64,000 nt of DNA from a virus (lineage: Duplodnaviria > Caudoviricetes): positions 12,234-76,233 of IMG/VR virus record IMGVR_UViG_3300005805_000073. One strand, written 5' to 3'. A model generated the notes under the pieces. That model saw nothing but the letters and a program-made list of their open reading frames with translations, made no database searches and was not told where the DNA came from. Positions 10,305-52,590 of the stretch are shown here, piece by piece; the stretch's first letter is position 1; each line of letters begins with the position of its first letter. The translations under genes and the position numbers were made by a program.

Positions 10305-11042
10305 TTAATAGGGAGCTTGATTATATGCTGTGATGAACTGTTGTAGAAATACGGGTTCAATTAATTTAATGTTGCGCTTAGCTTCATTTTTTTCTGTCTC
10401 ATATTCGTATATAGACACAGAATATATATCACCATTGGTAGCCAATACAGCATCGTAATCCACAACATATCCTGTTGTTGTATCACGCCATTCATACACA
10501 TCACTAGAAAGATTGTCTGGATATTTCAAATCAATCATGTCAGTAAGTTGACGTTCAGATAAAGGCCATTCTTCTCTTGGGTCTGTGATTTCATTAATAA
10601 TGAGAATGACCCAATGATATAAAGGTGTACCATAAAACTTGTACGATACATTTTCAGGTGTATCACCATCAGATACCACATAAGGAACTAGAATTGTGGA
10701 TTTTTCCAAATATTTTTTTGTAGGTTGAATTCTAACCAATATATCCGTCATTGTGATGGGACTACCTAAATCACTTTTTATAAAATTTCTTACTGTGGCC
10801 ACACCTGAATATGCCTCTGCTTCTTCTTCAAGATAACATTTAGTATCAGTATCAATTCTAGAAATCATACCCACCATAATATCATTTACATATAATTCTG
10901 CACCAGGTGTTATTTCTCTAATAAACAAGGTGTTTGTTCCTGTAATTATTTTTCCAGAAATAGAAATGGTACCTGTTAACGTACTATCCGTTCCTGTGAA
11001 TTCTGAAACAGGGACTATAATTTGAGGTAAATTACGCAACAT
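10305..11042 (-). CDS. gp53: Baseplate wedge subunit gp53 with N-terminal beta-rich insertion
   Basis: YVVSDGDTPENVSYKFYGTPLYHWVILIINEITDPREEWPLS and YEYETEKNEAKRNIKLI motifs. Confidence 0.88.
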   Translation of the reverse strand: MLRNLPQIIVPVSEFTGTDSTLTGTISISGKIITGTNTLFIREITPGAELYVNDIMVGMISRIDTDTKCYLEEEAEAYSGVATVRNFIKSDLGSPITMTDILVRIQPTKKYLEKSTILVPYVVSDGDTPENVSYKFYGTPLYHWVILIINEITDPREEWPLSERQLTDMIDLKYPDNLSSDVYEWRDTTTGYVVDYDAVLATNGDIYSVSIYEYETEKNEAKRNIKLIEPVFLQQFITAYNQAPY

Positions 11043-12103
11043 TATAGATTCTCATTGGCTACACGGTCGCCTGTGATAGGTACGATTTCTCGGAATGTTA
11101 AGCTCATCACAATATCAGCTGGAACACCGCCACTGTTTTTAAATGTAACAAAGTCTTGTCCCCCATATTTTACTGTCATATTGGTTAACACACAATCACT
11201 AAATTGATGAACATGAGTATTTACCGATCCTTGGTACATATAATATAAGGAAAATTCTGAAGGATAGATAAGATAAAAGGCATTTTCTGCCACTTCAGGT
11301 AACATATTTTGACGTAAAATTTTTATAATTTGTAAAGCATTTTGAGCTTCAGCTACACTGCCGGGAAGAAAAGTATACTCAAAAGTAAAGGTACGAAATT
11401 CAACTTGTTTGAAAATTTGTTCACGATAAGGATTTTTAATCTTACCAAGTCCTTTAGTGACGGCAGCACGTTGTGCGGCAGCATCCGCCTGTGTTAATAA
11501 TTCTCCTTTTTTACTTGGATTAATTTTATCTAACATGGCTTCACCTGCTATACCTTTGGCAATATTGAATGCACCTATTTTTCCCCCGGATAATACAGCA
11601 CCTAAAGCTTGTTCTTCCCAAGTAGCGGAATATTCAGCTCTAGGGGGTTCTTGTAATCCTAGACATATGGATTTTGCTAAGGTTGTTAACTGATTACTAC
11701 CTGAAATCGCTGCTGCACCTAATCCAGCAAGAGCTCTACCACCTTTAGCTAGTAAATTTCCTGTAACTATTTTTTCTGTTAAAGAACCACCCCCAGCAGC
11801 AGATGCTCCTACGATAGCGGCAGTAGTTCCTGCATTTCCAGCATCTGCACGGCGTGCACTAGTTTCTGTATAAGTTCCGCCGGTGGTTCCTCCACCTCTG
11901 GCTTGACTATTCTGTTCTCGAACACGGATAAGAATTTTCAACCAATGAGGTTGTTCTGGTGTTCCTACACCTTCAGGATATCGAAGCTGTTCAGTTGAAC
12001 GTGATGTGGATGCTCCTTCTTGATACCTAGGCTGACTGGCAACTGAGGCATCTTGTGAGCTTACACCATTAGGTCCCGGTGCGGCAGGAGTTTGATTAGC
12101 CAT
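11042..12103 (-). CDS. gp48: Baseplate tail-tube cap gp48
   Basis: NPYREQIFKQVEFRTFTFEYTFLP..LIYPSEF..CVLTNMTVKY..LTFREI motif. Confidence 0.85.
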   Translation of the reverse strand: MANQTPAAPGPNGVSSQDASVASQPRYQEGASTSRSTEQLRYPEGVGTPEQPHWLKILIRVREQNSQARGGGTTGGTYTETSARRADAGNAGTTAAIVGASAAGGGSLTEKIVTGNLLAKGGRALAGLGAAAISGSNQLTTLAKSICLGLQEPPRAEYSATWEEQALGAVLSGGKIGAFNIAKGIAGEAMLDKINPSKKGELLTQADAAAQRAAVTKGLGKIKNPYREQIFKQVEFRTFTFEYTFLPGSVAEAQNALQIIKILRQNMLPEVAENAFYLIYPSEFSLYYMYQGSVNTHVHQFSDCVLTNMTVKYGGQDFVTFKNSGGVPADIVMSLTFREIVPITGDRVANENL

Positions 12104-19684: not shown

Positions 19685-19713
19685 ACATACTATAAAGTTT
19701 GGATAATGTCAAG
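19685..19713 (-). promoter_or_regulatory. Sigma70-like promoter for the sleB-gp33-gp59 genes
   Basis: TTGACA-17 nt-TATGTT. Confidence 0.6.
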
Positions 19714-20461
19714 AGTATCCAAACATCTCATAGTCATCTTGAAACAGGTAGCGTACTACATCGTCAAATTTTTTTGTAGTGAAATCAATATTTACACTTG
19801 TATTGTTACTTGAATTAATTTGTTCAAGGTTGTTAGTTGAATATCCTAACGTTTTTTCAATCCAATAATTAAACTCTGATAGGTTTTCATAACGAAATGT
19901 TTTTACTTGTGGATGATAAGCATACTCAGTTTGTGTTACAAACATACTTGTAACGAATGATGGATTTTCTGTTTGAAAAATCTCACCTACAATACAACCG
20001 GGTTTTAATTTACTATTTTTATCAAAATGTGTATATATGAAATTGTAAAATACTTCTTCATTTTCTAAGAAATTAAAAAAACTTCTGCTTTTTTTAAAAT
20101 CAGCTATACTGTTATCCTTCTCCACAATTTCAATTTCACCACAAAATTCACATATGGACAAAATGTTATGTACATCCATTTCTTTTAATTGTGAATTCAA
20201 CTTACTTTGTAAATGTCTCAACCCTGAAATGAAACGACTTTTTGGATGTCTAACTAATCCAAATGCAAGTTCTATGTTTGGTTTATTTGCACACTGTGCA
20301 GATTTCATGCGAGAAAAACTTGCATGAGCATGAACTATCATATTAGTACTTTGTTCATTGAGCAATTCAGAAAAAAATAATTTTTGATATGAATGTGTTG
20401 CTGTTCTTGGCACCTTAACCCAAAAATATTTTTTACCATCTAATAACGAAGAAACAATCAT
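19709..20461 (-). CDS. Sulfotransferase family (Sulfotransfer_2-like) protein
   Basis: WVKVPRTATHS (PSB loop-like), VRHPKSRFISG, C-terminal FQDDYEMFGY. Confidence 0.7.
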   Translation of the reverse strand: MIVSSLLDGKKYFWVKVPRTATHSYQKLFFSELLNEQSTNMIVHAHASFSRMKSAQCANKPNIELAFGLVRHPKSRFISGLRHLQSKLNSQLKEMDVHNILSICEFCGEIEIVEKDNSIADFKKSRSFFNFLENEEVFYNFIYTHFDKNSKLKPGCIVGEIFQTENPSFVTSMFVTQTEYAYHPQVKTFRYENLSEFNYWIEKTLGYSTNNLEQINSSNNTSVNIDFTTKKFDDVVRYLFQDDYEMFGYS

Positions 20462-20466
20462 ATTGT

Positions 20467-21975
20467 TTATGAAGTGAATTGTGTATAGCAGCTGTATGAA
20501 GAATTACACACACACGGAAAACTTGCCTTATAACAAACACCATAAGGGTTATAACACGCATATCCACAGAATGCTGTGATTACAGACACCTCTGAATTGA
20601 TATTCTCAGTGAAAAATCTATAGGATTCTACTGCTTCTTCAGGTGCTGAAGTGTATATTTTAAGAAACATATGTTTTGTTTCTACTTTATTATTTTCTGA
20701 ATCTAGAGCTCTAGTAACAATCCGATATGCGGCTGAAGGTAAATCAACAGGAGGATTTATCGTCAATTTTGTACCATCAACGGTTATCCAACTAGGAAGG
20801 CTTGTGAATCCTCCTCCCTCGTTTGGTATTCCGTTAAATTGTAATTGTGTGGCATATAAATTGTTATATTCCAACACTATCTCATGTGAAGTCCCTTTTT
20901 GAATTGATACTTCATTAGGACCTGTGATGATACTAGATAATGTGGCAGCTCGAACCAATCGGTTAGGTGTAGTGCCATAGGTGATTTCGTTGCGGAATAG
21001 GATATCAATGCTACATCGTTCAATTAAATGAGTTTGTATTGCAGAGGCGTTCATGCTAGGATTTTCTACAATATGTTGAGCCAAAGCTCCTGACACCACA
21101 CCTGCAGCAATGGAAGTACCTGAGGCTTCCAACATACCTCCACTTATATCTGCAACATTCACATCTATGCCTGGGGCAAAAACATCAACTTCAGGGCCAA
21201 AATTGCTTAGTGCACCTTCACCCCAGCTAATCACACGGTCATAGGCATCACTTGCACCAACTCCTAATACCATATTTAATCCCACAGGTGAATAATCATC
21301 AGCAGCAACGCCTGTATTACCCGCAGCTGCAACCACCACAAGATTATCTGCGTACAACTCAGCAATTTTCAAATCTAGAATTTGACTCTTAGGAACCAAC
21401 CAAGAACAATTCACAATGGCGACGGATGCAACATCATGATGATTTAAAATGGCATCAAAAGCAGCCAGTAAAACACTATATGTCGTTGATGAACCCGTTG
21501 GAATTTTCACATCATTAAGGTTCACATTTTTGGAAATGCCTAAAGTTTTACCTGCAATCACGCTGGCAACCGAAGTACCGTGTCCATTTGTAGGGGTGAA
21601 ATCTGAATTATAACTAAACAATTTGTTTACTGTTGTATGAGAGAATTCTGGGTGTGTATCATCAATACCAGAGTCAACAACATAAACATTCACACCATCA
21701 CCATAGTTCTTTACCTTATAGAAGTTGGTCATGGGCAATCCTTCAGATACAATACGAAGCTGATGCCATTCAAATGATTCTACTGGTGTAACCTCAGAAT
21801 CAATTTCAAAAGTGATAACTCCTGAAACTTCTGAAAATGAGGTTGATTCTGCACTCAAGGTTAAAACACCAATATTCGAAAACACATCATGAATCACAGT
21901 GCCAGCTGATTCTAACTCAGACCGTAGAACATCGATGTCAACATTTTTATCATATATTACATTATACTTTACCAT
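20467..21975 (-). CDS. Subtilisin-like S8 serine protease with prodomain, Ig-like domain and Cys-rich tail
   Basis: Catalytic motifs VYVVDSGI, NGHGTSVAS and SGTSIAA; VAAAGN oxyanion motif. Confidence 0.92.
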   Translation of the reverse strand: MVKYNVIYDKNVDIDVLRSELESAGTVIHDVFSNIGVLTLSAESTSFSEVSGVITFEIDSEVTPVESFEWHQLRIVSEGLPMTNFYKVKNYGDGVNVYVVDSGIDDTHPEFSHTTVNKLFSYNSDFTPTNGHGTSVASVIAGKTLGISKNVNLNDVKIPTGSSTTYSVLLAAFDAILNHHDVASVAIVNCSWLVPKSQILDLKIAELYADNLVVVAAAGNTGVAADDYSPVGLNMVLGVGASDAYDRVISWGEGALSNFGPEVDVFAPGIDVNVADISGGMLEASGTSIAAGVVSGALAQHIVENPSMNASAIQTHLIERCSIDILFRNEITYGTTPNRLVRAATLSSIITGPNEVSIQKGTSHEIVLEYNNLYATQLQFNGIPNEGGGFTSLPSWITVDGTKLTINPPVDLPSAAYRIVTRALDSENNKVETKHMFLKIYTSAPEEAVESYRFFTENINSEVSVITAFCGYACYNPYGVCYKASFPCVCNSSYSCYTQFTS

Positions 21976-21999
21976 GGGATTCCTCGTTTATAGTACAAG

Positions 22000-22605
22000 T
22001 TATCTATTATTTATATTGTTTGTATAACTAAACATTTCATTTATCCCTAAAATTTTTGTGGCCCATATCTTTTCCATACAAAAATAACATCCCCCGCATT
22101 CGTTATAAGATACTCCGCAGGAAGCAGTCATTTTCAACAAGTCTAAAAGGTCATATTCTATATATTTTCTCACAATTTCTATCTTGTCCCACTCAATAAA
22201 TGGTCTAATGTGACGCTCATTCAACGGGTCTCCACGAACAGGAGGGGTATCATCTGGGATGTATACTGTGGGAATAAATTGGTCGGTCACCACCTTGTTA
22301 CATCCCGTAAACACGTAATCTGAATGACATACATTAAATACATCTCGAACCACATTTCGTATCCAATCTCTGGGAGCTGAGCAATTATATGTGATAGTCA
22401 ACGGAAATTTTTCCTGTATCCAAGAAATAATAGCTCTAACATAGGAGGGTCTTACTGTACCTCCTCTATAGGAAACGCAATCCAAATGCACGTTTAATTT
22501 ATTCTCGTGGATTTCTTTTGCTAGCAAATATAACAATAATGTACTGTCTATTCCGCCTGAAACTAATACGGTTATCTTACGAGCGTCGTTAGGTATCATA
22601 TTCAT
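22000..22605 (-). CDS. QueC-like PP-loop ATPase (paralog 1)
   Basis: SGGIDS PP-loop; C-terminal SC..CGGCYFC zinc motif. Confidence 0.75.
   Translation of the reverse strand: MNMIPNDARKITVLVSGGIDSTLLLYLLAKEIHENKLNVHLDCVSYRGGTVRPSYVRAIISWIQEKFPLTITYNCSAPRDWIRNVVRDVFNVCHSDYVFTGCNKVVTDQFIPTVYIPDDTPPVRGDPLNERHIRPFIEWDKIEIVRKYIEYDLLDLLKMTASCGVSYNECGGCYFCMEKIWATKILGINEMFSYTNNINNR
22008..22015 (-). promoter_or_regulatory. Late promoter TATAAATA upstream of the S8 protease
   Basis: Exact motif about 33 nt upstream of the ATG. Confidence 0.65.
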
Positions 22606-22614
22606 AGAAAAGGT

Positions 22615-22885
22615 AATGGGGGTATTCTGTTCCCAGGAACCCCCTAACCCGGCTAAAATGTCTTACGCAGCTAGGGCGTAAGAGGTAGCGAATGACATAT
22701 AATTGTTGTCATTTAATGTTTTTGCTCTGCTTAGGGCAGTCGCCTATCCGGTAGCTCTATCCTATACTTCTTCCCCTGTCGAAACCAAGCACCCCCGAAT
22801 ATACCACACAAAACACTAATGGAGGTGAGGGGAGTCGAACCCCTGTCCAAGAAAAGTTTCCATTTTAGCAATCTACTACCATCCT
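22615..22885 (-). ncRNA. ssrA: Circularly permuted (two-piece) tmRNA gene
   Basis: Minus strand: acceptor piece ending GGACAGGGGTTCGACTCCCCTCACCTCCA (3' end at 22820), 23-nt spacer, coding piece starting GGGGGTGCTTGGTTTCGAC (22796). Acceptor stem has the G3:U70 pair. Tag frame 22710-22663 encodes DNNYMSFATSYALAA*. Outer ends approximate. Confidence 0.9.
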
Positions 22886-22891
22886 ACTAAA

Positions 22892-23551
22892 TTATTTATA
22901 CACCTCGTATAAATCACGATAATACAACAACTGTTCCACATGAAGGTCACGTTTGCTTTCAAACACTTGCATGAACCCATCTGATACTGCAATCAAGATG
23001 GTCAGTCTGTTCACAGGTATCTTGGTTCGTTCCTCAAACATGATGGCATAGGCAGCTGCTTGCATGAAATAGTGTTGGATGTGTTCCACATCTTTCTCTC
23101 GTCGCGCCGTCTTGAAGTCAATCACACTGAGTTTACCATCAAAATTGGCTATGCAATCCACTCGACCTGCCAACCGAAGATGGTGTGACCATAACGCCAC
23201 TTCTTGAGCTCTGATATTGTCAATTCTGTCTAACACAGGATTAGCAACCTGAAACATCTCATGGTCCCAGAGGGACATATCTCTGCCTGACAAATTGTTC
23301 TGAAGATATTTTTCTACTAAAGTATGAAATCTAGTACCCCAGGCAGCTGCTTGTCGAGACACCTTATTGGCCTCTTCAGCACCAACACGTGCCCTCCACT
23401 CCTGAATACCCTTTTTGGTGTGCTCAGAAAGAACAGAGGTGACAGATGGATAGAGCCCACCATCAGGTGTTTGATAGGCTCTGGTTCCATCTGCCTGTGT
23501 CACGGCGGATATGGTTTCTATTGTTACTGGATCATGGAGGAATGTTTTCAT
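22892..23551 (-). CDS. PD-(D/E)XK exonuclease (Cas4-like superfamily)
   Basis: YPSVTSVL..GTRFH..LAGRVDCIA..VIDFKT..YFMQAAAY. Confidence 0.85.
   Translation of the reverse strand: MKTFLHDPVTIETISAVTQADGTRAYQTPDGGLYPSVTSVLSEHTKKGIQEWRARVGAEEANKVSRQAAAWGTRFHTLVEKYLQNNLSGRDMSLWDHEMFQVANPVLDRIDNIRAQEVALWSHHLRLAGRVDCIANFDGKLSVIDFKTARREKDVEHIQHYFMQAAAYAIMFEERTKIPVNRLTILIAVSDGFMQVFESKRDLHVEQLLYYRDLYEVYK
22893..22900 (-). promoter_or_regulatory. Late promoter TATAAATA directly upstream of the tmRNA precursor
   Basis: Exact motif overlapping the exonuclease stop codon. Confidence 0.7.
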
Positions 23552-26224: not shown

Positions 26225-27328
26225 TCAAGTGTTATTTAACAAATGGTGAAAATTGTGTCCAACTGTAGCACCACTTACAGTTTTTTTATTGTGTATTTTT
26301 TGTAGTTCCAAAAGGAATTGTTGATGTTGTTCATGTTCTGGTTCAAATACTGAAATAGCTTTAACATGAGCAGAAGAATATGCACCCGTTCCCCAATACA
26401 CATGTTGTCTATAGTGGATATAAAGTTGAATTTTAGATTTAGAAAAAATATCGTTAAATGTGTGATAAAAATCTTCCATCTCTTTGTAATTATATTCGCT
26501 GACCACCATAGAAACAATAAAGTGTTCTATACTATCTTGTGTGCTTAAATATTGTATGTTGGAAATTAATCTATCCCAATCTCCGTTCAACCGCGTAATG
26601 TTTTCATATGTATCTTTGGTTCCTGCGTCTACACTAATTTCTATTCGTTTGATGAACTTTCTGGCACCTAAACTCATCCACATTTTTTCATTTAACAAAT
26701 TGCCATTTGTAATAATCTGTATTTCTTCTAGTTTAGGATATTTTTTAGGATCAAAATCTATCAGATAATTTCTATACAGTTTAGAGTAAAAAGGATCACC
26801 GCTTCCAGTTATCATTAAACGTTTCACATTAGCAGCAAATTTTGTTTCAATTTGTTCTAAAAGATATTCTTTTCTTTTGTGTGCAAATGAATTTACATCG
26901 TCATTCGGCACTTGTTCATTTCTGCATGATGGACATTTTAAGTTACAACTCCTATCGAATCCGAATAAAATATACTCAGGGAGACCCTGAAAATTCTCAA
27001 CATCTTCTAAAGAAGTTATATTAAAAGTTTTGAGTGCTTCAGACTTTTCTATGAATTCTATAGGTACTTCATCGGTATTAATTAATTTAGATAAAGAAGG
27101 ACAAACTTTATGGTCGCAGTGACGATAAGTTCCATCTAGTACTGATTTTCTAATATCAGTTACCGTAGGACCTTGCCAATCTTTTAATAGGTCTTCCTGC
27201 ATCGGTGGGGCATCGCCCCCTATATTAGTAGGTGCCCAACTAGGACAACATATCCACTGACCTATAGGTTGAATATCTAGATATGTGAAAGGATTTTTAC
27301 AGACATACTTTTTTAATTTTTCTGACAT
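26225..27328 (-). CDS. Radical SAM protein with N-terminal SPASM/twitch-like domain (paralog 1)
   Basis: SCNLKCPSC (CxxxCxxC), GSGDPF, TNGNL; N-terminal CKNPF..CCPSW. Confidence 0.88.
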   Translation of the reverse strand: MSEKLKKYVCKNPFTYLDIQPIGQWICCPSWAPTNIGGDAPPMQEDLLKDWQGPTVTDIRKSVLDGTYRHCDHKVCPSLSKLINTDEVPIEFIEKSEALKTFNITSLEDVENFQGLPEYILFGFDRSCNLKCPSCRNEQVPNDDVNSFAHKRKEYLLEQIETKFAANVKRLMITGSGDPFYSKLYRNYLIDFDPKKYPKLEEIQIITNGNLLNEKMWMSLGARKFIKRIEISVDAGTKDTYENITRLNGDWDRLISNIQYLSTQDSIEHFIVSMVVSEYNYKEMEDFYHTFNDIFSKSKIQLYIHYRQHVYWGTGAYSSAHVKAISVFEPEHEQHQQFLLELQKIHNKKTVSGATVGHNFHHLLNNT

Positions 27329-27954
27329 TAGAATGCCACCCATTTTCCTGATCCGTAGTGTGGATATTTGGATTTATAGGTGTAATGAATTACATCTGCA
27401 GGTATCTCTCGTTTTTTGTTCCATGTGGCTTCAGTCGGTGTGTAGGTAGAAACACCATTATCTTCAACTATAAAATATAATGGCAAATCAAAATTTCTAG
27501 CATACTTATGTACCTCATAGAATATACCAGTCTCAAAACACATATCACCAATAAAGCACCAAACTTTATCTGAACTATTTTGTAACTTTAATGATTTTGC
27601 TACGCCTAAGGCAATAGGTAAAGTAGCAGTTACAATAGCGGATGAATAGAATTTTTCATCAATATTACATAGAGTTATAGACTTCCCTTGCAATATTTCA
27701 TTCTTAACCCATTCAGAAGATATACCTTTTAACAAAGCATGATAATGTGACCTCCAAGTACTAAAAACCCAATCTGAAGGCTTTATACGCTTGAATATTT
27801 CGATGAGTTGAGATTCGTTACCATCGGAAAGATGAATAGGACCGCGTATTTGTCCGGCCTCCCAATGTGCAACTATATCTGTTTCAAACTCCTGCAAATC
27901 CTTTTCACTGATGGTTACTTCTCGCACGGATGCATATTGCTCTAGATTAATCAT
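27328..27954 (-). CDS. TPP-dependent enzyme, E1-alpha/transketolase N-like subunit
   Basis: GPIHLSDGNE, STWRSHYH, GDMCFETG..EDN (TPP motif), HYGSGKW end. Confidence 0.85.
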   Translation of the reverse strand: MINLEQYASVREVTISEKDLQEFETDIVAHWEAGQIRGPIHLSDGNESQLIEIFKRIKPSDWVFSTWRSHYHALLKGISSEWVKNEILQGKSITLCNIDEKFYSSAIVTATLPIALGVAKSLKLQNSSDKVWCFIGDMCFETGIFYEVHKYARNFDLPLYFIVEDNGVSTYTPTEATWNKKREIPADVIHYTYKSKYPHYGSGKWVAF

Positions 27955-27955
27955 T

Positions 27956-28516
27956 TTACATCTCCACTAAAACGTTCTTGTCCCTATTCTGTAATATCGG
28001 ATTATCGCTGGGCCATTCTATATTGAAACGAGGATCATTCCATTTTACAACTTTTTGCGATGATTCATCTACATATTCCCCCTCATAAAATAAATTATAG
28101 TGGAAGATGCAATCTGTCAAGGCGTAGTGACCATTTGCAAAACCAGGGGGTATAAGTACTTGGTCTCTATTCTTTTCAGAAATTATATAGGATTCCCACT
28201 TGCCAAAGGTGGGTAATGTTTCTCGCATATCTAGCACCACCAAATATATATCACCCACTAATGCTTGTACTAGCTTCCATGTTTTAAAATCATAATGAAG
28301 CCCTCGAAGAACACCTTTATAAGATTGAGAAAACCGTGAATGAATATTGTCCAAAGATACTAAGGAATTTACAGGATGATGTTTGCTATGATAGGTTGTG
28401 AATATTTCTCCACGAAATTCTTTATACACAGACGGTGTATATATTGGAACCCATTTATCAAAAGTTTTTAAATAACTTATGTCATATTCATTCCATTTTC
28501 TATTTTTATAATTCAT
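27956..28516 (-). CDS. rmlC: dTDP-4-dehydrorhamnose 3,5-epimerase (RmlC family)
   Basis: SQSYKGVLRGLHY..KLVQ..VVLDMR..IPPGFANG..WNDPRFNIEWP. Confidence 0.9.
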   Translation of the reverse strand: MNYKNRKWNEYDISYLKTFDKWVPIYTPSVYKEFRGEIFTTYHSKHHPVNSLVSLDNIHSRFSQSYKGVLRGLHYDFKTWKLVQALVGDIYLVVLDMRETLPTFGKWESYIISEKNRDQVLIPPGFANGHYALTDCIFHYNLFYEGEYVDESSQKVVKWNDPRFNIEWPSDNPILQNRDKNVLVEM

Positions 28517-28517
28517 A

Positions 28518-29684
28518 TCACACCTCTGTATATATTTTTTCTGTTGCATTTTTCAATAAATCAAAATACATTATTTTACAGTTATCTTTTGTGAAATTGT
28601 TATATTCTTTTTTAAATTCAGACAATTCTCTTTTTTCCATAGAAACAATTTTATCTACAAACTTCTGTGCATGTACCATTCGCTGTGCAGCATCTTCAAT
28701 TTGGTCATAATCATGATTCCAAAAATCAAAACGGTATTTCAGTCCTAAATTCTCTAATGCCTGTAACACGTTTGGTTTACCAAGAAACACAAATGGGTGA
28801 CCAGTAAACGTAGGGCGCATTATTTTTTCAGAAATATGCCCCCATGTCTTGGAAGTATGTAATGTGCCTCCTCCCATATCAGGAGTTATATGATAAAATC
28901 TTGTTTCAGCAACAATTTCAAAGTAGCTATCTAAGTATGATACTAAATTAAAACTATTTCCTCGAATATTGTAGTCATCATATCCTTGATAATCATGGAA
29001 ATATGGTAACTGCTTTAAAATATCAAAGCTATTAAATTTTTCTTTAAACACGCGCGGAACTAGGTCATCAATTATACCTAGGTCATAATCAGGTGCAGTA
29101 CTCCCCCACATGAAATCATTTAAGTATCCTCTTTGATGTAAAAATTCCAACATCTCAACTTTATGATATCTAGTATGTCCTACATGGTATATACCTTTAT
29201 ACTTTCTTAAAAATTGGTGTTGAGTTCTTTCAATATTACGTAAGGATTCAAAAGATGAATAGTTAACATCATCCACTCCTGTATAATGAAACATTAATGC
29301 AGGAAACCAAAAATGATTTTGTCTTTTAGACAATAAATTTCCGCTGATTATTCCGCAGTCTACATCTATCAGACTTTCACATGCAAGAAAAAAATCCTCG
29401 GATACTTCCTGTAGGTCGTAACCAGATACATCATAAAATATTTTTTTGAATTTTCTATGCTGTAACTGTTTTTTTAAAGAAGGTAAAATTACATCAAATG
29501 ACCGCCAATCTGAAAAACCAACAAATAAAGTGGTGTTTTCATCCATTTCAGAGAAATCTACAATTTCAACATCTGTATATCTTATGAAACAATGCTTTAG
29601 TTCAGTAAATTGGTCATGTTCATGCATTAATAACCAATCACCGTTTAATAATTTAAATTTTATGAAGCAAAGTTTTTTTGTCAT
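28518..29684 (-). CDS. Hypothetical protein, island paralog family A (possible glycosyltransferase-like)
   Basis: C-terminal YFEIVAET..SEKIMRP..HPFVFLG..LENLG..DYD motif shared with two other island ORFs. Confidence 0.6.
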   Translation of the reverse strand: MTKKLCFIKFKLLNGDWLLMHEHDQFTELKHCFIRYTDVEIVDFSEMDENTTLFVGFSDWRSFDVILPSLKKQLQHRKFKKIFYDVSGYDLQEVSEDFFLACESLIDVDCGIISGNLLSKRQNHFWFPALMFHYTGVDDVNYSSFESLRNIERTQHQFLRKYKGIYHVGHTRYHKVEMLEFLHQRGYLNDFMWGSTAPDYDLGIIDDLVPRVFKEKFNSFDILKQLPYFHDYQGYDDYNIRGNSFNLVSYLDSYFEIVAETRFYHITPDMGGGTLHTSKTWGHISEKIMRPTFTGHPFVFLGKPNVLQALENLGLKYRFDFWNHDYDQIEDAAQRMVHAQKFVDKIVSMEKRELSEFKKEYNNFTKDNCKIMYFDLLKNATEKIYTEV

Positions 29685-30880
29685 CTTAAATATTTTTGTA
29701 GATAGGAAAGTTTTATAGGTAGGGAAGTTTTATTATATTTGTGACCAAACTCTATGAAATTACGGAAATAATGTAGCGTATTATTTGTATCCATGTTTGT
29801 ATAATCTTTAGAATTTTTCAAATATTGTATAAAATTTAGGATTTGTTGTTTTAGTTCTCCAGGCAAAAGTTGCATCATATTTTTTTCTAAATGTTCAATA
29901 ACTTCTAACCTTATATCAAAATTTATAGCATTTAAATAAAAGGGACCTTCAACAAAACCAAAAGATATTTGTCCGTCATCAAATATATAACGTTCCTCAA
30001 ATAATTTCTTCCGAAATTCAAAAAAATGAAAACAATTCAACACTGAACAGGTGTATTGAATTCTATAACTAACATTACCATATATTTTTCCTGCTTCTTG
30101 TACTTTTCGAAGGTTGTTACAAAAAACTTTCCAATTGAAATTGGTACGAACATACTCTCCAACTTCTTCTGCGCCATCACAGGAAACACCAAAATGAACT
30201 GTCTTGAAATTTTTTAATAAATCAAAAACTGATTTTCCTTTATGTTCAATGATACTAAGATTTGTATTAAAGGTTAAAGTTATTTTATCCTTATTTTCAA
30301 GACTTTCTAAAAATTGATACATGGCATCCATATACAGAGGTTCACCGCCAGCAAAATATATCTTTTCAAGACCTTTCAAATTTTCCTTAGGTATTTCAAA
30401 TGAAGTTTTTTGAGAAGTATCTAATACAATTTCTGATGATCCTATAAGTTTATTAAACTCCTTTCTCTCTGATATCCATGCTGTGGAATAGTCAGGCGTA
30501 CACGTTCTACACTTGAAATTGCATATATTAGAAGGCCTTAAATCTAAGTATACAAAATCAGGTGTTATAGATCCATCGCTTTTTGTACTATTTAAAATTT
30601 TTTCCTTTAAATGACCGTAATCTTCATTACTTTTAATTCGCTCACTTTTCCCGCCGGATTTTTCCATATCCCAACAATAGGAACAATGAGAATTTTGCAC
30701 ACCGGTTAATAAATCTCGTCTAATTTGTTTATATTCCTCACTGTTAAATGCATCTGTTGTTGATTGATGTTCTAGGTTAATATCAGAAATAAAGGTTCTA
30801 GAATAACAACAAACTTTTAGCTTATTGTTGGGATATGCATTTAAATGTATAAAAGGAAGGGAACAAAAAGTATCAGACAT
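29681..30880 (-). CDS. Radical SAM protein with twitch-like domain (paralog 2)
   Basis: FCSLPFIH..CC; SNICNFKCRTC; FAGGEPL; alternative start 30901. Confidence 0.9.
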   Translation of the reverse strand: MSDTFCSLPFIHLNAYPNNKLKVCCYSRTFISDINLEHQSTTDAFNSEEYKQIRRDLLTGVQNSHCSYCWDMEKSGGKSERIKSNEDYGHLKEKILNSTKSDGSITPDFVYLDLRPSNICNFKCRTCTPDYSTAWISERKEFNKLIGSSEIVLDTSQKTSFEIPKENLKGLEKIYFAGGEPLYMDAMYQFLESLENKDKITLTFNTNLSIIEHKGKSVFDLLKNFKTVHFGVSCDGAEEVGEYVRTNFNWKVFCNNLRKVQEAGKIYGNVSYRIQYTCSVLNCFHFFEFRKKLFEERYIFDDGQISFGFVEGPFYLNAINFDIRLEVIEHLEKNMMQLLPGELKQQILNFIQYLKNSKDYTNMDTNNTLHYFRNFIEFGHKYNKTSLPIKLSYLQKYLR

Positions 30881-31406
30881 AATATAATTCAGGATATTCA
30901 ACTAAACAATGAATTCCTCCCTTTAAGGCTTCTTGATAGCCTAAAACGATATCATCGGATGTTTTTAAATCATGAAACGTGACATGCTTGCACATGGAAC
31001 GAAATTCATTAATGTAATTATTTTTATGTTGATGTCCGGGGTCTAAAGGTTTATCGCTACCTTTTCCTAAACGAATCAATAAATTTATTGGTTTACCTGT
31101 CATCAAGCTATACTTGTCCACACTATTAATTAACTGGTTAGACGCTACAATGATGAAGTCCCAGCGAGGATAAAAGGTAACGACATTTTTACCTGTCATA
31201 GCTAATCCTAGCGACATGCCCATTTGAGTTTCTTCCATAACAGGCGTTTCAATCATATTTTCTTTCGGCACATTTCCTAGAGTAGTACTCATAGGATTTC
31301 CGGGATATATAATTTGTTGCCCTACGAAAATAAAATTTTCTTTTGCCAGTAAAGTCATGGCATCAGTTAAGGAATCTTTATATGGGGTGAAATTTGTATT
31401 GCTCAT
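30873..31406 (-). CDS. TPP-dependent enzyme, E1-beta/transketolase pyrimidine-binding subunit (short, no C-terminal domain)
   Basis: ETPVMEETQMGMSLGLAMTG..YPRWDF..NQLIN..GHQH. Confidence 0.82.
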   Translation of the reverse strand: MSNTNFTPYKDSLTDAMTLLAKENFIFVGQQIIYPGNPMSTTLGNVPKENMIETPVMEETQMGMSLGLAMTGKNVVTFYPRWDFIIVASNQLINSVDKYSLMTGKPINLLIRLGKGSDKPLDPGHQHKNNYINEFRSMCKHVTFHDLKTSDDIVLGYQEALKGGIHCLVEYPELYYV

Positions 31407-31407
31407 A

Positions 31408-32346
31408 TTAACGATGTATCCAATTAATGTCCATAGTTGTTACCAAAGATTCAGCTATCAACTCATGGCATTTTTTTGAAGGATGATGGTCACCTGGACC
31501 AATAGAAAAGAACGGATCTGAATCAATTTTCATCTCATTATTCTCTTCCATTAAATGTTCTAATGATGTATAGTTTTTTTCATTATAATGAAATGTAACA
31601 AATCTATCTCGCATCCATTCATCATTCATAATGTGAGGAACATTTTCTTTAGGCCACGATAATATTCTGGCCTTAACTCCGCGTTGCTCAAATTTCTGAA
31701 GAAAAGACTTCACCATGTTTACAACATTTATACAGTGTCTCTGAAGCAATTCTTCATAGGTTATATTATTTTCTAACAAATAGCTTGTGATATATTCTAA
31801 ATTTTCTTCATCCATCCCATGTTGATGCAAAGTCACTTCCTTTACTGTACCATCCTGATACTTCAACACATATTTGGTTCTTGATGGCATTGTAAACTGA
31901 TAAGTTATGTATGCAAACTCATCAAAATCATAGTTAGGTTCAGATATGGCGTACATGCTATCTCCCTGCATGGGACGATGTGACACATCATAATTAGTAA
32001 AATATCTGTGATTATGTGGATTAAATACTCGTTCCCAATAATCTATGATGTTAAATTCTGCTCCTCCGTTATTAGGATGAACCACCTCAAATGTATTTAA
32101 TTTATTAGCTAATAAACGAGGATATCGCAAGGATTCCATAGCTCGCAGATGAGCATCATTAATTAAATGCCTATGAAAATGATTTGGAGGAGGCTCCATG
32201 ATGGTAGGCAAATTATAATAATAATATAATCCTTGCCCCCATGTGAATGAACACCCCGCAGATACTATTCCTCTACGGATTTTAGAATCAGGAAGTTTAA
32301 ATTTAGTATCTGGGGTTTTACCTGAATAGAATTCTAATGGATGCAT
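31408..32346 (-). CDS. SGNH-like hypothetical protein
   Basis: GCSFTWGQG near the N-terminus and DHHPSKKCH near the C-terminus. Confidence 0.5.
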   Translation of the reverse strand: MHPLEFYSGKTPDTKFKLPDSKIRRGIVSAGCSFTWGQGLYYYYNLPTIMEPPPNHFHRHLINDAHLRAMESLRYPRLLANKLNTFEVVHPNNGGAEFNIIDYWERVFNPHNHRYFTNYDVSHRPMQGDSMYAISEPNYDFDEFAYITYQFTMPSRTKYVLKYQDGTVKEVTLHQHGMDEENLEYITSYLLENNITYEELLQRHCINVVNMVKSFLQKFEQRGVKARILSWPKENVPHIMNDEWMRDRFVTFHYNEKNYTSLEHLMEENNEMKIDSDPFFSIGPGDHHPSKKCHELIAESLVTTMDINWIHR

Positions 32347-32373
32347 AATCTAGTAGTTTGAAGTTTATTTTAT

Positions 32374-33432
32374 TTATGACTGTTTGTTAAATTGAGATTT
32401 AGGAGACCACATGAATAAATGCTCTCGTATTTCAGGATAATTCATAGGATATTCATTCTCAAAATTTTTCATAATATCTTGCTGTAGAATAAACAATTGG
32501 TTTTTATTATGAAGGAAAATATCTTTGTACTGAGAAGTCAAATCCTGAAGCTCTTCGATTGTCCTATGACTCAATTTAATTAACTCCTTTTCAATTGCTA
32601 AAATTCTGTCATTGACAGATAGTTCATCATATGTTTCATCTATTAAAGGAGAAAATGTCCTGAATCCTAAATCTCGTAAACCTCGTAAGGTATTTTTTGA
32701 TGCAACTATAATAAATGGTTGAGGTATGAGAAATTGTCTAAAAATTTTTTGACTGAAGAAACTATGTTCTATACCGGTAGTAAATCCATTTCTAGTATAC
32801 CAGTGCCATTCACCTGTTTCATCAATCACATCCTTAAAAATAGTATCGGTTATGATGTTAACACAGGTAGATTTATACAGATGCAACAAATGTTCATGAT
32901 AGGTCCAATTATCATTTAAATTTTCAGAGGGATTTTCAAGAAAATTTTTTTTATTATCCCATACTATGGAATAGTAACAATCGTTTAATAAATTTTCACT
33001 GTTCAAAAAATTTATTAAATGAGTTCGATGTGGTTTATGTTCCTTATTTAAAAATAAAAATTTTTTCTCCTTGATAGAAAAATCATGTTCCTTTCGGAAT
33101 ACTGTATCTGCCATGAATACCAACCAAAAAGGACAGAAAACATATTTAAATCCCAACTTCTCTATGAATTTTTTGTAAGACGAACTAAAATTTTCTGAAA
33201 TGATGACAATTTGACCAATGTCTATATTTTCCCATAATAAAAGAGAATGAAGTGTCTGTAAATTTTCTATGTGCTGAAATGTTAAAGGTTCTCCTCTTTC
33301 ATGATAGAAAAATTTTTTCCCTTGTTTTAATAAAGGAACAATTTCTTGAAATAATGTTATAATCTCTTGTTTTGAAGAAAATATTAAAAACGGAGATTTA
33401 GATATGATACTATATTGGGTTACCTGATACAT
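32374..33432 (-). CDS. Hypothetical protein, island paralog family A
   Basis: FLFLNKEHKPHR..VNIITDT..SQKIFR..QPFIIV..LRDLGFRTF..IDETYD. Confidence 0.6.
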   Translation of the reverse strand: MYQVTQYSIISKSPFLIFSSKQEIITLFQEIVPLLKQGKKFFYHERGEPLTFQHIENLQTLHSLLLWENIDIGQIVIISENFSSSYKKFIEKLGFKYVFCPFWLVFMADTVFRKEHDFSIKEKKFLFLNKEHKPHRTHLINFLNSENLLNDCYYSIVWDNKKNFLENPSENLNDNWTYHEHLLHLYKSTCVNIITDTIFKDVIDETGEWHWYTRNGFTTGIEHSFFSQKIFRQFLIPQPFIIVASKNTLRGLRDLGFRTFSPLIDETYDELSVNDRILAIEKELIKLSHRTIEELQDLTSQYKDIFLHNKNQLFILQQDIMKNFENEYPMNYPEIREHLFMWSPKSQFNKQS

Positions 33433-34219
33433 CTAAAGCCTCACCCTCAAAATTTATATATCCCTCAGGACATGCTAATCTAGTAAAAGCTAAATATGAC
33501 CATCTCTTGAACCCATGCCGCACAGGAAGAACCTCATGCCATACATTATTCTTTGTGAAGTCTATCATCACATAAGTCCCACGAACAGGAGGTATTTTTT
33601 CAGATATAGGTTCTGTATTTTCAAAATTGTTTGCAGTACATACAAATTCTCCCCCATTCTTTTCACTCCATTCTTCCTTATTAGTTAGATACACGATAAC
33701 AGCTGCAATTTTACCAGATGCAGAATGATTTTTAGCTTCTCCTCCGTCCTGATGTTTGCAAATATAACATCCTTTATCATCATACATTGTGATGTTATCA
33801 TTGAAATTTATAATCCAACCTTTCTTCAAATTTTCAGTGGTAAAAATATGTGAATATACGTCATTACGTAAAAATCTTTCTACTAAAATTCGTAGATTAT
33901 TTTTCGGTTCCTCCAATGGCTCTGGGATCGAAATTAATCTATACCATTTTTGATGCCACTGTAAATTATTTTTTCGCACAAACATATCTCTTTCTGGTAC
34001 ATCTTGCAGAGGAATTATTGGAGGCATATCCAGGTTATTATGAAAATTTACAATTGGATAAAAGCAATCCCAGTGTGATGGTTCATAATCAGGAAAGTTT
34101 ATAATTGTATCGCAGGTAGCATTAAACCATTCTGAATTATCTGTGAGTTCTTCTATTGAACCCACATGAAATCCTGTCTCAAAGAAATTTTTAAGTTGTT
34201 CTGATGTAAGCATATACAA
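33410..34219 (-). CDS. 2OG-Fe(II) oxygenase
   Basis: HQD (HxD), distal WHEV, RWS. Confidence 0.75.
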   Translation of the reverse strand: MYMLTSEQLKNFFETGFHVGSIEELTDNSEWFNATCDTIINFPDYEPSHWDCFYPIVNFHNNLDMPPIIPLQDVPERDMFVRKNNLQWHQKWYRLISIPEPLEEPKNNLRILVERFLRNDVYSHIFTTENLKKGWIINFNDNITMYDDKGCYICKHQDGGEAKNHSASGKIAAVIVYLTNKEEWSEKNGGEFVCTANNFENTEPISEKIPPVRGTYVMIDFTKNNVWHEVLPVRHGFKRWSYLAFTRLACPEGYINFEGEALDVSGNPI

Positions 34220-34225
34220 TGCCTC

Positions 34226-35218
34226 TTACGGTGTTGAATTAGGATTAAATTGTCCTTTGTTGTTTTTATACCATACTATTGTTTCTTTTAAAGCCTGCTT
34301 TAAATCTCTCTTAGGTTTCCAACCTAAAGCATTAATTTTCTTTGAGGATAGCAGTCGTACAGGTATCATAGGTGCCTTATTGTTAACATATGAAATAGGA
34401 TTGATGTTACTATCTAACTCCTTAATCCAACCTAGCACCTCATTCACGCTGAATCCTTCCCCATAACACACATTAAAGATATCATACCGGTCGCAATTTT
34501 CAACTACAAAAATAAATCCTTCTGCCATATCTTCAACATGAAGCAAATCTCGCACTTCAGTGCCATCTCCCCAAATTGGAATTGGATTTAACCCATCAGC
34601 AACTTTTCTAATATTGGCAGGCGTCACGTGACACTTTTCATAATCAAACTTATCATTTGGTCCAAAAGCATTAGAAGGTCTCACAATTAAACATTGCATA
34701 GGATCGTGAATTTGATTGGAAAAGAAATCACATAACATTTCACCATATCGCTTTTGCCCACCCACAGCCTTATATACAGGAACTAAAGGAGTAGCATGTA
34801 CATTCATATCCTCTACACACCAATCTTCGCCCATATCGGGGTATGTTGTATTAGATGAGATGAATAAAAACTTGCGCACCTTATTCTTCCAGCTCTGTTC
34901 CATTAAATTGACATTCATTTCCACATTAGGAGTTACATGCAATAATGGATTATATTTTGTATCTAATGCGTTGGATGTATTGGCAGCACAATGAAACACT
35001 ACATCAACATTTCTAGAAACTTCCGCACAAAATTCTGCGTCTTGTAAATTTCCTACCATGTGTTCAATTGTATCACATCCCTCAAAATCATTTCTTAAAT
35101 TTCTACTAAATGAAGTGGCTCGTAGGTTGCGATATCCTTTTTGATATAACAGACGCAATAAATGGGAACCTATAAATCCACTAGCACCTGTGACTAAAAT
35201 TTTATCCTCAAAACGCAT
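34226..35218 (-). CDS. NAD-dependent epimerase/reductase (GDP-L-fucose synthase-like)
   Basis: VTGASGFIG, YxxxK-like motif, RPSNAFGPNDKF, IWGDGTEVRDLLHV. Confidence 0.85.
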   Translation of the reverse strand: MRFEDKILVTGASGFIGSHLLRLLYQKGYRNLRATSFSRNLRNDFEGCDTIEHMVGNLQDAEFCAEVSRNVDVVFHCAANTSNALDTKYNPLLHVTPNVEMNVNLMEQSWKNKVRKFLFISSNTTYPDMGEDWCVEDMNVHATPLVPVYKAVGGQKRYGEMLCDFFSNQIHDPMQCLIVRPSNAFGPNDKFDYEKCHVTPANIRKVADGLNPIPIWGDGTEVRDLLHVEDMAEGFIFVVENCDRYDIFNVCYGEGFSVNEVLGWIKELDSNINPISYVNNKAPMIPVRLLSSKKINALGWKPKRDLKQALKETIVWYKNNKGQFNPNSTP

Positions 35219-36227
35219 TTTTATTCTCCTTCATGGGGTTCATATAACATTGTATAGTCTTATTTATTCCTTCCTGCAAAGTTGTTTGAGGTAAAATTCC
35301 ATATTGTGTTTGCCTCTCTGCACCTAAGCAACGAATGGCATCGCCGTTCATCTTAGTAGTGTCCCAAACAATCTTCTTTTTCTTTCCTGTGATTTTTTGA
35401 TACTCATCAACAATGGTTTCAATTGTCTGTTTGATAGTCACAGCCTCACCACATCCAAAATTAATGACATCTCGTACTTCCTTCTTTACCACATCAATTG
35501 TTGCCTGTGCAACATCGTCTCCAAATACAAAGTCTCTACGAGGAGAACCATCACCCCAGCATACCATTTCTTCCTCATCCTGATTGAATAGCTTCCATAT
35601 ATTTGTACTAATAACTGTTGCATCAGGAGCAAAATTATCATGTATACCGTAAATATTAGAAGGACGAATGACTGTCCAATTGTCCCAGCCATACTGAACC
35701 TTTAAAGCATCCAAAGACAATTCACCCATACGCTTTGACCAACCTGGGTGCCAATCGTTTTTTGAAGGAGTAGATGCCCAAGTTTCTTCACGATTCCAAG
35801 TATCGCCTTCATGCATGATATCTGCTGGCTTATACACACCAACCGATGAAAGATAAACGAACCAATCTACATTTGCGTCAAATGACGCTTTAATCATATT
35901 GGTATTAAACATTAGCATTGGAAAAAGATAATCTGCCGGTCTTGTTGAAGAACGCAAAGGAGATCCTTTTACACCTGCTATATGTAAAACAACATGAATT
36001 TTTTCTTTTTGAAATAATTCCTGACAGTTATTGAGATAAGTTAGGTCCGTTTCAATTAATTTCAATTGCCCACGACAATCCACTGCCCATTGTTTTATTT
36101 CATTTGAAAATTTAAGGTCCACTGCATAGACAGTGTTAGCACCTTCCTCTAAACATTTTCTAACTGTAGGAGTTCCTACCAATCCGTTAGCACCTGTCAC
36201 AATTATATTTTTTCCTCTCAGTTCCAT
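35208..36227 (-). CDS. NAD-dependent epimerase/reductase (GDP-L-fucose synthase-like)
   Basis: VTGANGLVG, GWSKR, RPSNIYGIHDNF, WGDGSPRRDF. Confidence 0.85.
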   Translation of the reverse strand: MELRGKNIIVTGANGLVGTPTVRKCLEEGANTVYAVDLKFSNEIKQWAVDCRGQLKLIETDLTYLNNCQELFQKEKIHVVLHIAGVKGSPLRSSTRPADYLFPMLMFNTNMIKASFDANVDWFVYLSSVGVYKPADIMHEGDTWNREETWASTPSKNDWHPGWSKRMGELSLDALKVQYGWDNWTVIRPSNIYGIHDNFAPDATVISTNIWKLFNQDEEEMVCWGDGSPRRDFVFGDDVAQATIDVVKKEVRDVINFGCGEAVTIKQTIETIVDEYQKITGKKKKIVWDTTKMNGDAIRCLGAERQTQYGILPQTTLQEGINKTIQCYMNPMKENKNAF

Positions 36228-36229
36228 AA

Positions 36230-36439
36230 TTACTCCTGGTAGAATCTACCGTAGTTTATATGACTCCATGCTCGCTCAAAAAAATAAAAAGCAAAGAATC
36301 CTGTTAAATTCATTAATAATGCATTATTAAAATTAGAACTACTCAAAGATAAACTGAGTATTGCCCAAGAATTTACAACAGCAACTATTCTCCAAGTTAT
36401 TGCTTTGAGTGTTGTTCTTTTTTTATTCTCTACTATCAT
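36230..36439 (-). CDS. DUF2061-like small membrane protein
   Basis: RTTLKAITWR..YFFERAWSHINYG. Confidence 0.8.
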   Translation of the reverse strand: MIVENKKRTTLKAITWRIVAVVNSWAILSLSLSSSNFNNALLMNLTGFFAFYFFERAWSHINYGRFYQE

Positions 36440-36875
36440 CTTTTTTTAACCAACCATCATCGGCTCTTTTGTTCCAGCTTATTTCCCAATCTTTAAAATC
36501 AGCGGCCAAACAATCTACTTTATAATCTTTTCTACCTCCGACAACCTCCTGAATCACATTTTTAGCTGTATTGCGAATACCATTTAATCCATGTGTTAGT
36601 TCTAGGTTGTTACCATCGCGTATACCACGACGATAATTAGATTCATTATGCCAAATATGAAGGTTCATTTGTGATACTACCACAATAGCACGGATAGTTT
36701 CAGCTGTGATGGGTTCCTCTGCATCGTTCAAAATTAATTGAATATCATGCACGATATCTTTAATTTCTTCTGCATACTCCTGCTTATACTCAGGAATGAA
36801 TACTTCTTTCAACTGTACAATACTTAAACGGTCAATTAAATCACCTAACGTGTGTAGATATTTACGCTCTGTCAT
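36423..36875 (-). CDS. Conserved-looking hypothetical protein of sugar clusters
   Basis: TLGDLIDRLSIVQLKE..NLHIWH..NGIRN; overlaps both neighbours. Confidence 0.6.
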   Translation of the reverse strand: MTERKYLHTLGDLIDRLSIVQLKEVFIPEYKQEYAEEIKDIVHDIQLILNDAEEPITAETIRAIVVVSQMNLHIWHNESNYRRGIRDGNNLELTHGLNGIRNTAKNVIQEVVGGRKDYKVDCLAADFKDWEISWNKRADDGWLKKDDSRE

Positions 36876-52192: not shown

Positions 52193-52416
52193 TTATTCTT
52201 CGGGCAGGCATCTTCTCCTTTGGGAGAATATACTTTTTTATTCAAGGGACACCCACAGGCACCGCACACATAACTCCGAACCAATGTTCGAAATTCTTTA
52301 TGTTCGCAGTCATTGCAAATGTTCATGCGTTGTTCTGCCACGTGTTGTTGTTCTTCCGTGGGATTGGCGGCACGTTTCCATGCCACGGCAATTTCTAGTA
52401 AATCAGGTATTTTCAT
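52180..52416 (-). CDS. Small Cys-rich protein
   Basis: RMNICNDC..CGACGC..CPKNKW; ATGA overlap at 52413-52416. Confidence 0.7.
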   Translation of the reverse strand: MKIPDLLEIAVAWKRAANPTEEQQHVAEQRMNICNDCEHKEFRTLVRSYVCGACGCPLNKKVYSPKGEDACPKNKWHI

Positions 52417-52589
52417 TTCTGCTCCTCCACAACATCTCGTCGAATCACGGCACATCGTCCCATCACAGCCAACGCTTCACGATATCCATATTGTCGTGCC
52501 TGTTTCACACTGTTGGCATACACCACCGTGGAATATTTATAGTGGTTGGTGAAGCAGGTGTAAACATAGCTTTTTCGTTGAAAACGCAT
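52413..52589 (-). CDS. Hypothetical protein
   Basis: 58-aa ORF starting MRFQRK immediately after the upstream stop. Confidence 0.5.
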   Translation of the reverse strand: MRFQRKSYVYTCFTNHYKYSTVVYANSVKQARQYGYREALAVMGRCAVIRRDVVEEQK

Positions 52590-52590
52590 C

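Follow-up and report, generated by a model that had tools for sequence, protein, structure and literature searches.

The stretch of DNA analysed here (64,000 nucleotides (nt), referred to below as the window) comprises bases 12234-76233 of the 76,233-bp IMG/VR virus record IMGVR_UViG_3300005805_000073, which is about 46% complete by CheckV estimate. On its minus strand, between the genes for an exonuclease and a PP-loop ATPase, it carries a gene for a permuted, two-piece transfer-messenger RNA (tmRNA, encoded by ssrA). ARAGORN, run on the whole window, called this single gene, as a permuted tmRNA ('tmRNA*') at 22572-22909(-) with the tag DNNYMSFATSYALAA, and the Rfam model tmRNA_permuted (RF04321) was matched over its full length (1-213) with 119.7 bits (E 8.7e-23), the gathering score being 47 bits. 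A first-pass annotation, made by reading the sequence, had described a permuted tmRNA here and had proposed covariance models as a check; our reading of the minus strand reproduced each element that it had placed (Table 1), the RF04321 match lies far over the cut-off and ARAGORN agrees on the permutation. The ARAGORN limits exceed the real RNA, taking in the promoter box on the 5' side and 34 nt of the PP-loop open reading frame (ORF) on the 3' side, and an automatic annotation that used them would overlap a coding sequence.

Judged by its gene content the source of the record is an uncultured T4-like myovirus, because it holds the T4-like marker genes for gp32, PhoH and an ATP-dependent DNA ligase together with structural genes for a baseplate wedge, a hub/lysozyme, a tail-tube cap, a hub and a DNA end protector. 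The gp32 proteins of marine single-virus genomes and cyanomyophages share no more than about 55% identity with its own. The 2.3-kb tmRNA locus was found at 100% identity in independent assemblies (a 119,934-bp ENA contig and a Logan run), and an assembly artefact is therefore ruled out.

Architecture of the two-piece tmRNA

Read along the minus strand, the part that stands at the 3' end of a standard tmRNA comes first, the T-arm and acceptor 3' strand (22844-22820) being followed by a 23-nt spacer and then by the acceptor 5' strand. The tRNA-Ala-like domain is complete, with a 7-bp acceptor stem, the G3:U70 pair, a discriminator A and a 5-bp T-arm with a GGUUCGANUCC loop; the alanine-identity acceptor stem described in the first pass is thus present, and its G3:U70 pair is retained without change in 18/18 homologues. 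Helix P2 is formed across the two pieces, CTTTTCTTG pairing with CAGGGGAAG and GGTAGT with GCTACC. CCA is not encoded in the window gene, nor in any of the aligned homologues (0/16). Among the members of the viral clade described below the spacer varies from 21 to 37 nt and is 35-41% identical, compared to more than 82% in the flanking RNA, as would be expected of a segment that is discarded.

The 3' element of the coding piece matches the 3' parts of both the alpha and the beta Rfam models. The loop of its hairpin (CCUGGGAACAGAA) is invariant in homologues, and the stem is retained with other letters in L072 (GGTAGTTTGG/CCAAACTACC) and in L073. The preceding CCGGG could pair with CCUGG in the loop to form a putative pseudoknot; this candidate pairing is invariant, with L072 out of register, and so it is not addressable by covariation.

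Table 1. Positions of the tmRNA gene, its parts and its two neighbours in the window, in the order in which the minus strand is read
Feature	Position	Strand	Basis or remark
PD-(D/E)XK exonuclease gene, 219 amino acids (upstream neighbour)	22892-23551	-	Pfam PF12705; phrog_298 exonuclease 3.9e-66
TATAAATA, T4-type late-promoter box	22893-22900	-	overlaps exonuclease stop codon (22894-22892)
Acceptor piece (3' part of a standard tmRNA)	22820-22886	-	RF04321 alignment, RNAalifold, pair counts; 5' end predicted
Conserved GTAGGATGG	5' end of acceptor piece	-	alignment
P2 5' strands	GGTAGT 22880-22875; CTTTTCTTG 22856-22848	-	sequence reading
T-arm	A22844-U22828; GGGG 22843-22840, CCCC 22832-22829	-	sequence reading
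Acceptor 3' strand CACCTCC	22827-22821	-	sequence reading
Discriminator A	22820, then TTA	-	sequence reading
Intervening segment, 23 nt	22797-22819	-	no ORF inside; presumed discarded at maturation
Coding piece (5' part of a standard tmRNA)	22615-22796	-	full-length alignments to RF01850 (1-331) and RF01849 (1-355), covariation; 3' end predicted
Acceptor 5' strand GGGGGTG	22796-22790	-	7-bp stem with CACCTCC, includes G3:U70
GGTTTCGAC	in coding piece, 3' of acceptor 5' strand	-	sequence reading
P2 3' strands	CAGGGGAAG 22778-22770; GCTACC 22755-22750	-	sequence reading
PK1 region	about 22750-22724	-	in coding piece
Tag frame	22663-22710	-	resume GAC 22710-22708; tag (A)DNNYMSFATSYALAA 22710-22666; stop TAA 22665-22663
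3' element	22618-22651	-	CCGGG 22651-22647, then hairpin GGGGG 22644-22640/CCCCC 22622-22618
PP-loop ATPase gene, 201 amino acids, weakly QueC/TilS-like (downstream neighbour)	22000-22605	-	weak Pfam and NCBIfam matches

Conservation, tag and promoter in a viral clade

A degenerate pattern that ran from the T-loop through the acceptor and the spacer to the acceptor 5' strand retrieved at least 119 IMG/VR stretches, and among the matches listed ARAGORN called 105 permuted tmRNAs. Seventeen of these, one being the locus of the window itself, group in a clade 73-84% identical to the window. A clade-specific 35-mer was present in 39 contigs, one of them a genome of 177,878 bp that is 99% complete, so that the clade numbers at least 39 viral contigs, with the gene at a fixed locus. 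No close cultured relative was found by BLASTN against 50,697 isolate-phage records, in which the best matches were of 77 nt (to Stenotrophomonas phage tmRNAs).

RNAalifold on 16 members recovered the acceptor stem, the T-arm, three P2 helices, the PK1 hairpin and the 3' hairpin, and when 41 pairs were counted in 18 homologues 93.3% of the cells formed a standard pair, compared to 44-54% when the partners were slid by 1-3 columns. Compensatory changes were seen at 15 pairs (shuffled mean 7.2) and the covariation score was 0.202 (shuffled mean 0.091), with 0 of 500 shuffles as high in either case. These changes, for which the first-pass annotation had suggested looking in homologues, include two T-arm pairs and the acceptor pair 5:68 (G:C to A:U in L148, L161 and L156), and so the fold that it had drawn is upheld in both the acceptor stem and the T-arm. 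Two members, L037 (around 10951-11100, +) and L164 (around 3367-3520, +), hold apparently decayed tmRNA genes in which deletions remove the tag end, the stop codon and the 3' hairpin; the remnants are fused beside the start of the PP-loop gene and are not called by ARAGORN.

The tag frame lies after PK1 without a start codon and ends in a hydrophobic YALAA followed by a stop, and the Rfam alignment sets GAC at the consensus GCA resume codon. Both of the differences between the tag of the window and that of L073 are synonymous (AAT/AAC, CTA/TTA), and a 1-nt insertion between the PK1 GCA and the GAC/GGC in L073, L015 and L052 leaves the tag frame unaffected. These synonymous-only differences and the survival of the frame past an upstream indel indicate coding constraint on the tag. 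Resumption at the upstream in-frame GCA was ruled out, since this codon is out of frame in the three members with the insertion. A phage tag with a degron-type end had been proposed in the first pass, and ARAGORN and the frame reading both bear this out.

The tag DNNYMSFATSYALAA was also recovered in L146, L147, L153 and L157, and the tags of the clade as a whole are DNNYMSFATSYALAA, DNSYMS[NY]AN(Y)SYALAA, G[AT]YN[AT]PLALAA, GTFNSPLALAA and GNQYGSYMSSGYALAA, with GAC (Asp) or GGC (Gly) as the resume codon in all members and GCN in none. Over the acceptor piece and P2a-PK1, L073 and L015 are 96-100% identical, and over the spacer 91%; the tag region of L073 is 96% identical to that of the window and 49% identical to that of L015 (L073:477-826, L015:9901-10238, window 22663-22710). 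L146 and L160 have a common backbone with a 37-nt spacer, carrying an Asp-type tag in L146 and a Gly-type tag in L160. From these comparisons the tag appears to move as a cassette between backbones by recombination.

T4-type late promoters are marked by the box TATAAATA (in marine T4-likes NATAAATA), which precedes the start of transcription by a few bases. In the clade TAAATA is invariant in 16/16 homologues, 5 nt before the conserved GTAGGATGG, the box taking the forms TATAAATA, GATAAATA, AATAAATA and ACTAAATA in the alignment, and the sequence further upstream is unrelated between members. Among the matches listed, ATAAATA stands 50-75 nt upstream of the T-loop in 15/15 clade genes compared to 2/71 of the other viral permuted tmRNAs, about eight more of which have it at 47-48 nt. 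The window has six copies of TATAAATA, each at a gene boundary and in sense orientation; three precede the ORFs for the baseplate hub, the tail-tube cap and an S8 protease by 30-34 nt. Neither a sigma-70-like promoter nor an intrinsic terminator was found on the strand of the gene, the interval between the tmRNA and the PP-loop gene included; the bacterial beta model holds a TATAAT box at the corresponding position. The first-pass annotation had given the gene its own late promoter, and the conserved distance of the box in the clade, its invariant core and the same motif before baseplate genes favour that assignment, from which we infer, with good support, late-type transcription of the tmRNA.

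Structural type, published relatives and genomic surroundings

The best model of the Rfam tmRNA clan for the window was beta_tmRNA (RF01850), with 81.2 bits (E 5e-25), alignment of the full model (1-331) and a clean P2, and it was also the best model for 10/10 other clade members tested (11/11 with the window), five passing its cut-off with 89.9-114.5 bits. In control comparisons viral genes with cyanobacterial-style tags were assigned to cyano_tmRNA, with 128 and 171 bits. An alphaproteobacterial type was considered for the window gene and rejected, since alpha_tmRNA (RF01849), although matched above its cut-off (57.8 bits, cut-off 50), was outcompeted by beta_tmRNA and aligned P2 with non-canonical pairs; the alpha consensus AGGAUCGAC is replaced in the window gene by GGUUUCGAC. 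The Caulobacter two-piece tmRNA is reportedly the experimentally established case, Keiler, Shapiro and Williams being said to have found in 2000 that one precursor gives an acceptor RNA and a coding RNA which work together.

When one bacterial genome per species was scanned for the PK1 23-mer of the clade, it was found in 10 contigs, all of Burkholderiales-group betaproteobacteria (Variovorax, Roseateles, Caldimonas, a Burkholderiaceae metagenome-assembled genome and an uncultured betaproteobacterium), and the PK1 motif of the clade is identical to that of the three named genera. The tags of these bacterial carriers differ, being of the ANDSFYLKQA type, and BLASTN against 401 Burkholderiales genomes found no close bacterial copy or donor, the matches being of 27-43 nt only. 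The window gene is also like the betaproteobacterial tmRNA (RF01850) in its piece order, in having UGGUUUCGACAGGG after the acceptor 5' strand and in a P2 without mismatches to the model. It is unlike it in having no terminal terminator hairpin and no encoded CCA, and the clade is unlike it in resuming at Asp or Gly instead of Ala, in its longer, different tags and in having a phage-late box instead of TATAAT. From these comparisons we assign the gene, as a divergent member, to the beta-type permuted lineage; the first-pass suggestion of an independent, phage-specific permutation lineage is not supported, given the ranking of beta_tmRNA in 11/11 genes and a PK1 motif that, among the bacteria scanned, is confined to Burkholderiales. 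Two viral genes elsewhere among the matches, L019:1231-1556 and L041:489-815 (tag ANDERFA[LV]AA), gave 271-299 bits on beta_tmRNA, far above the other viral genes here and above Variovorax; these contigs may represent genes captured very recently, prophage, or host DNA that was entered as viral.

Two-piece tmRNAs of phages are already in the literature. Buchholz et al. 2022 (PMC9004378) described them in Melnitz, a phage of OM43 (Methylophilales), and in pelagimyophages, and of the 133 unique phage tmRNAs that they counted 53 were two-piece genes, 50 of these being from marine or aquatic phages; among the carriers of permuted genes in their Table S1 are phages of Stenotrophomonas, Caulobacter, Synechococcus, Pelagibacter, Bordetella and Citrobacter. 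The novelty that the first-pass annotation had seen in a phage two-piece tmRNA therefore falls away for the kind, and the window gene is a new uncultured member of it. According to Sharkady & Williams 2004, as cited in PMC9004378, the betaproteobacterial two-piece tmRNA is a third permuted lineage. A curated tmRNA database of 97,179 sequences (PMC11915505) includes 79 from bacteriophages, and in it the CCA position is not always encoded.

The tmRNAs of aquatic T4-like phages (Melnitz, the Pelagibacter phages HTVC008M and Mosig, and several cyanomyophages; PMC9004378) are like the window gene in the permuted ssrA, the T4-like genome, the lack of a phage SmpB, the ARAGORN call and a tag that ends in hydrophobic AA residues. 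The Melnitz gene is reported to be of alphaproteobacterial type with an early promoter and a glutamine riboswitch in the 3' domain (PMC9004378), whereas the window gene is of beta type with a late-type box, and no such riboswitch was detected for it at E up to 1. The Stenotrophomonas phages Mendera, Marzo and YB07 (Menderavirus), whose permuted tmRNAs are in GenBank, gave the only BLASTN matches in the isolate-phage collection (76.5% over P2a/PK1), and the Marzo tmRNA is permuted by ARAGORN with beta_tmRNA as its best model (94.6 bits). The Menderavirus gene differs from that of the window in lying inside a tRNA cluster, in its tag (…ANDDSYTVRIAA), in its long separate tree branch and in belonging to a phage family with a gammaproteobacterial host.

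The gene order in the clade is ligase, PhoH, exonuclease, tmRNA, PP-loop and S8 protease. The exonuclease gene is syntenic in most clade loci (67-90% amino acid identity) and the PP-loop gene in 12/16 (37-44%). Because the PP-loop ATG lies about 10 nt past the tmRNA 3' hairpin, the two genes are probably co-transcribed. An S8 protease gene and then a sulfotransferase gene (19709-20461) follow, all on the minus strand, and the protease gene has its own TATAAATA at 22008-22015, within the end of the PP-loop ORF. The downstream PP-loop and S8 protease genes (19709-22605, -) are syntenic at 37-50% amino acid identity, compared to 67-94% for the upstream PhoH and exonuclease genes. L103, L005, L015 and L072 carry 0.9-2.8 kb of additional DNA that separates the exonuclease or PhoH gene from the promoter box of the tmRNA, and this points to a hotspot for insertions directly before the tmRNA.

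Elsewhere in the window a low-GC island (26225-42054, -; 31-34% GC) holds sugar- or small-molecule-modification genes, among them three for twitch-domain radical SAM proteins (26225-27343, 29681-30901 and 40609-42054), a TPP-enzyme fragment (27328-27954), an RmlC-like epimerase (27956-28549) and a carbamoyltransferase (39161-40612). A GC-rich stretch at 52000-58000 (49-54% GC within a phage of about 37% GC) contains an AAA-ATPase-like ORF (53455-54384) and a GP88-family ORF (54645-55349).

Function and alternative explanations

Taking the comparisons together, we hold it to be highly probable that this is a functional permuted ssrA of betaproteobacterial structural type, inherited vertically as a core-locus gene by a clade of T4-like myoviruses without psbA that probably infect heterotrophs, and that it serves ordinary trans-translation from a late promoter with host factors. 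Genes for SmpB, a CCA-adding enzyme and an integrase were looked for in the record and not found, and neither SmpB, a CCA-adding enzyme nor psbA was found in the 99%-complete clade genome. The absence of psbA from that genome argues against a cyanobacterial host, and the absence of the other two from both sources agrees with the reliance on host SmpB and host CCA addition that had been put forward in the first pass. T4 itself relies on the host for 3' trimming and CCA addition of some of its tRNAs, and such dependence is therefore not unusual.

For the timing of transcription, the processing, charging and tagging, and the physiological benefit, we propose the following course. Late in infection the phage-modified RNA polymerase would start at the [N]ATAAATA box and make a single precursor of acceptor piece, 23-nt spacer and coding piece, the transcript probably continuing into the PP-loop gene. 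Host RNase P would cleave 5' of G22796, host 3' processing would trim after A22820 and the host CCA-adding enzyme would add CCA, leaving two RNAs held together by the acceptor stem and the P2 helices. Host alanyl-tRNA synthetase would charge this RNA via G3:U70 and A73, and the charged RNA would enter stalled ribosomes with host SmpB. Translation would then resume at GAC, appending A-DNNYMSFATSYALAA, so that tagged peptides would be …ADNNYMSFATSYALAA, and the YALAA end would direct the product to ClpXP-type proteolysis while the ribosome is freed. The likely benefit would be that ribosome-rescue capacity is sustained once host transcription stops and messenger RNA fragments accumulate.

Several observations weigh against this account. 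The window shows no enrichment of the box TATAAATA (6 found, 5.2 expected), so that support for the promoter comes from position and conservation and not from frequency, and the gene may be reached by read-through from the upstream gene. The window's score on beta_tmRNA is just under the RF01850 gathering score of 84, a cut-off which is tight even for real betaproteobacteria, as a genuine Variovorax tmRNA used as a control scored 84.9 bits. A quick maximum-likelihood tree of 94 tmRNA cores (non-coding, 220 columns) recovered the clade at 99, but support at its deep nodes is at most 84, which leaves the deep placement unsettled; since the tree can neither confirm nor refute the beta placement, we relied on the lineage covariance models with their controls. 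The minimum free energy of the single sequence is no better than that of shuffles (z = 0.13), a measure which is uninformative for a pseudoknotted two-piece RNA, and support therefore rests on the comparison of sequences and not on thermodynamics. The two or three deletion alleles of the clade (L037, L164) indicate that some phages, at least, can do without the gene.

These same alleles, and the statement that in related phage groups the tmRNA is 'common but not defining' (PMC9004378), would fit a captured host gene, neutral or decaying, that is carried without function, but at least 39 contigs retain the gene at the same locus, and the compensatory changes, the invariant G3:U70, the synonymous-only tag differences between close alleles and the conserved promoter box speak against such a passenger. 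With no close donor among the Burkholderiales genomes searched either, we regard a passenger gene as very improbable. It is harder still to credit that the locus is an attachment-site mimic or the remnant of a temperate ancestor's integration into a host ssrA: tmRNA genes are frequent integration sites for islands and prophages, but an attachment-site fragment would copy just one gene end, and here both pieces, the tag and the promoter are complete in a genome of T4-like lytic type in whose record no integrase was found.

The remaining alternatives grant that the RNA is functional. It might chiefly manipulate the host, by phage-specific re-tagging of stalled products that steers proteolysis and amino-acid recycling, or by competing with host tmRNA for SmpB, and might even supply substrates to the phage's S8 protease, whose gene is the second one downstream. 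Such a role would suit tags that are unlike those of the nearest bacterial tmRNAs, tag cassettes swapped between backbones, non-alanine resume codons in all clade members and a syntenic protease gene with its own TATAAATA; selective tagging was raised as one possibility by Buchholz et al. (PMC9004378), and a phage RNA consisting of the tRNA-like domain only, from DS6A, has been reported to inhibit tmRNA. The full tmRNA architecture and the ordinary YALAA/LALAA degron are, however, what plain trans-translation needs, diverse tags are normal among bacterial tmRNAs and the S8 protease is tied to the tag by gene order alone, and we consider host manipulation unlikely. We are similarly doubtful of a further idea, in which the tag is an exchangeable module, near-identical backbones bearing either a long Asp-resume tag (DNNYMSFATSYALAA) or a short Gly-resume tag (GT[FY]N.PLALAA); taken with late control and the fast-evolving PP-loop and S8-protease genes directly downstream, this could mean that selection drives diversification of the degradation tag in these phages, for instance so that it fits, or escapes, recognition by the adaptors and proteases of the host.

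Ordinary trans-translation from a late promoter with host factors is thus the reading that we prefer. As the standard tools (ARAGORN and Rfam RF04321) find the window gene, it adds little by itself to the documented two-piece tmRNAs of phages; what is added is good sampling of a clade, with at least 39 contigs from uncultured, non-cyanophage T4-like viruses, in which the gene has a fixed locus, a conserved late box and a beta-type structure. Minor new details are the non-alanine resume codons, the signs of tag-cassette recombination and the few decayed alleles. The beta-type structure is a weak pointer to a host in the Burkholderiales group, and the clade offers a convenient natural series in which to study when, and for what reason, a lytic phage provides a ribosome-rescue RNA of its own.

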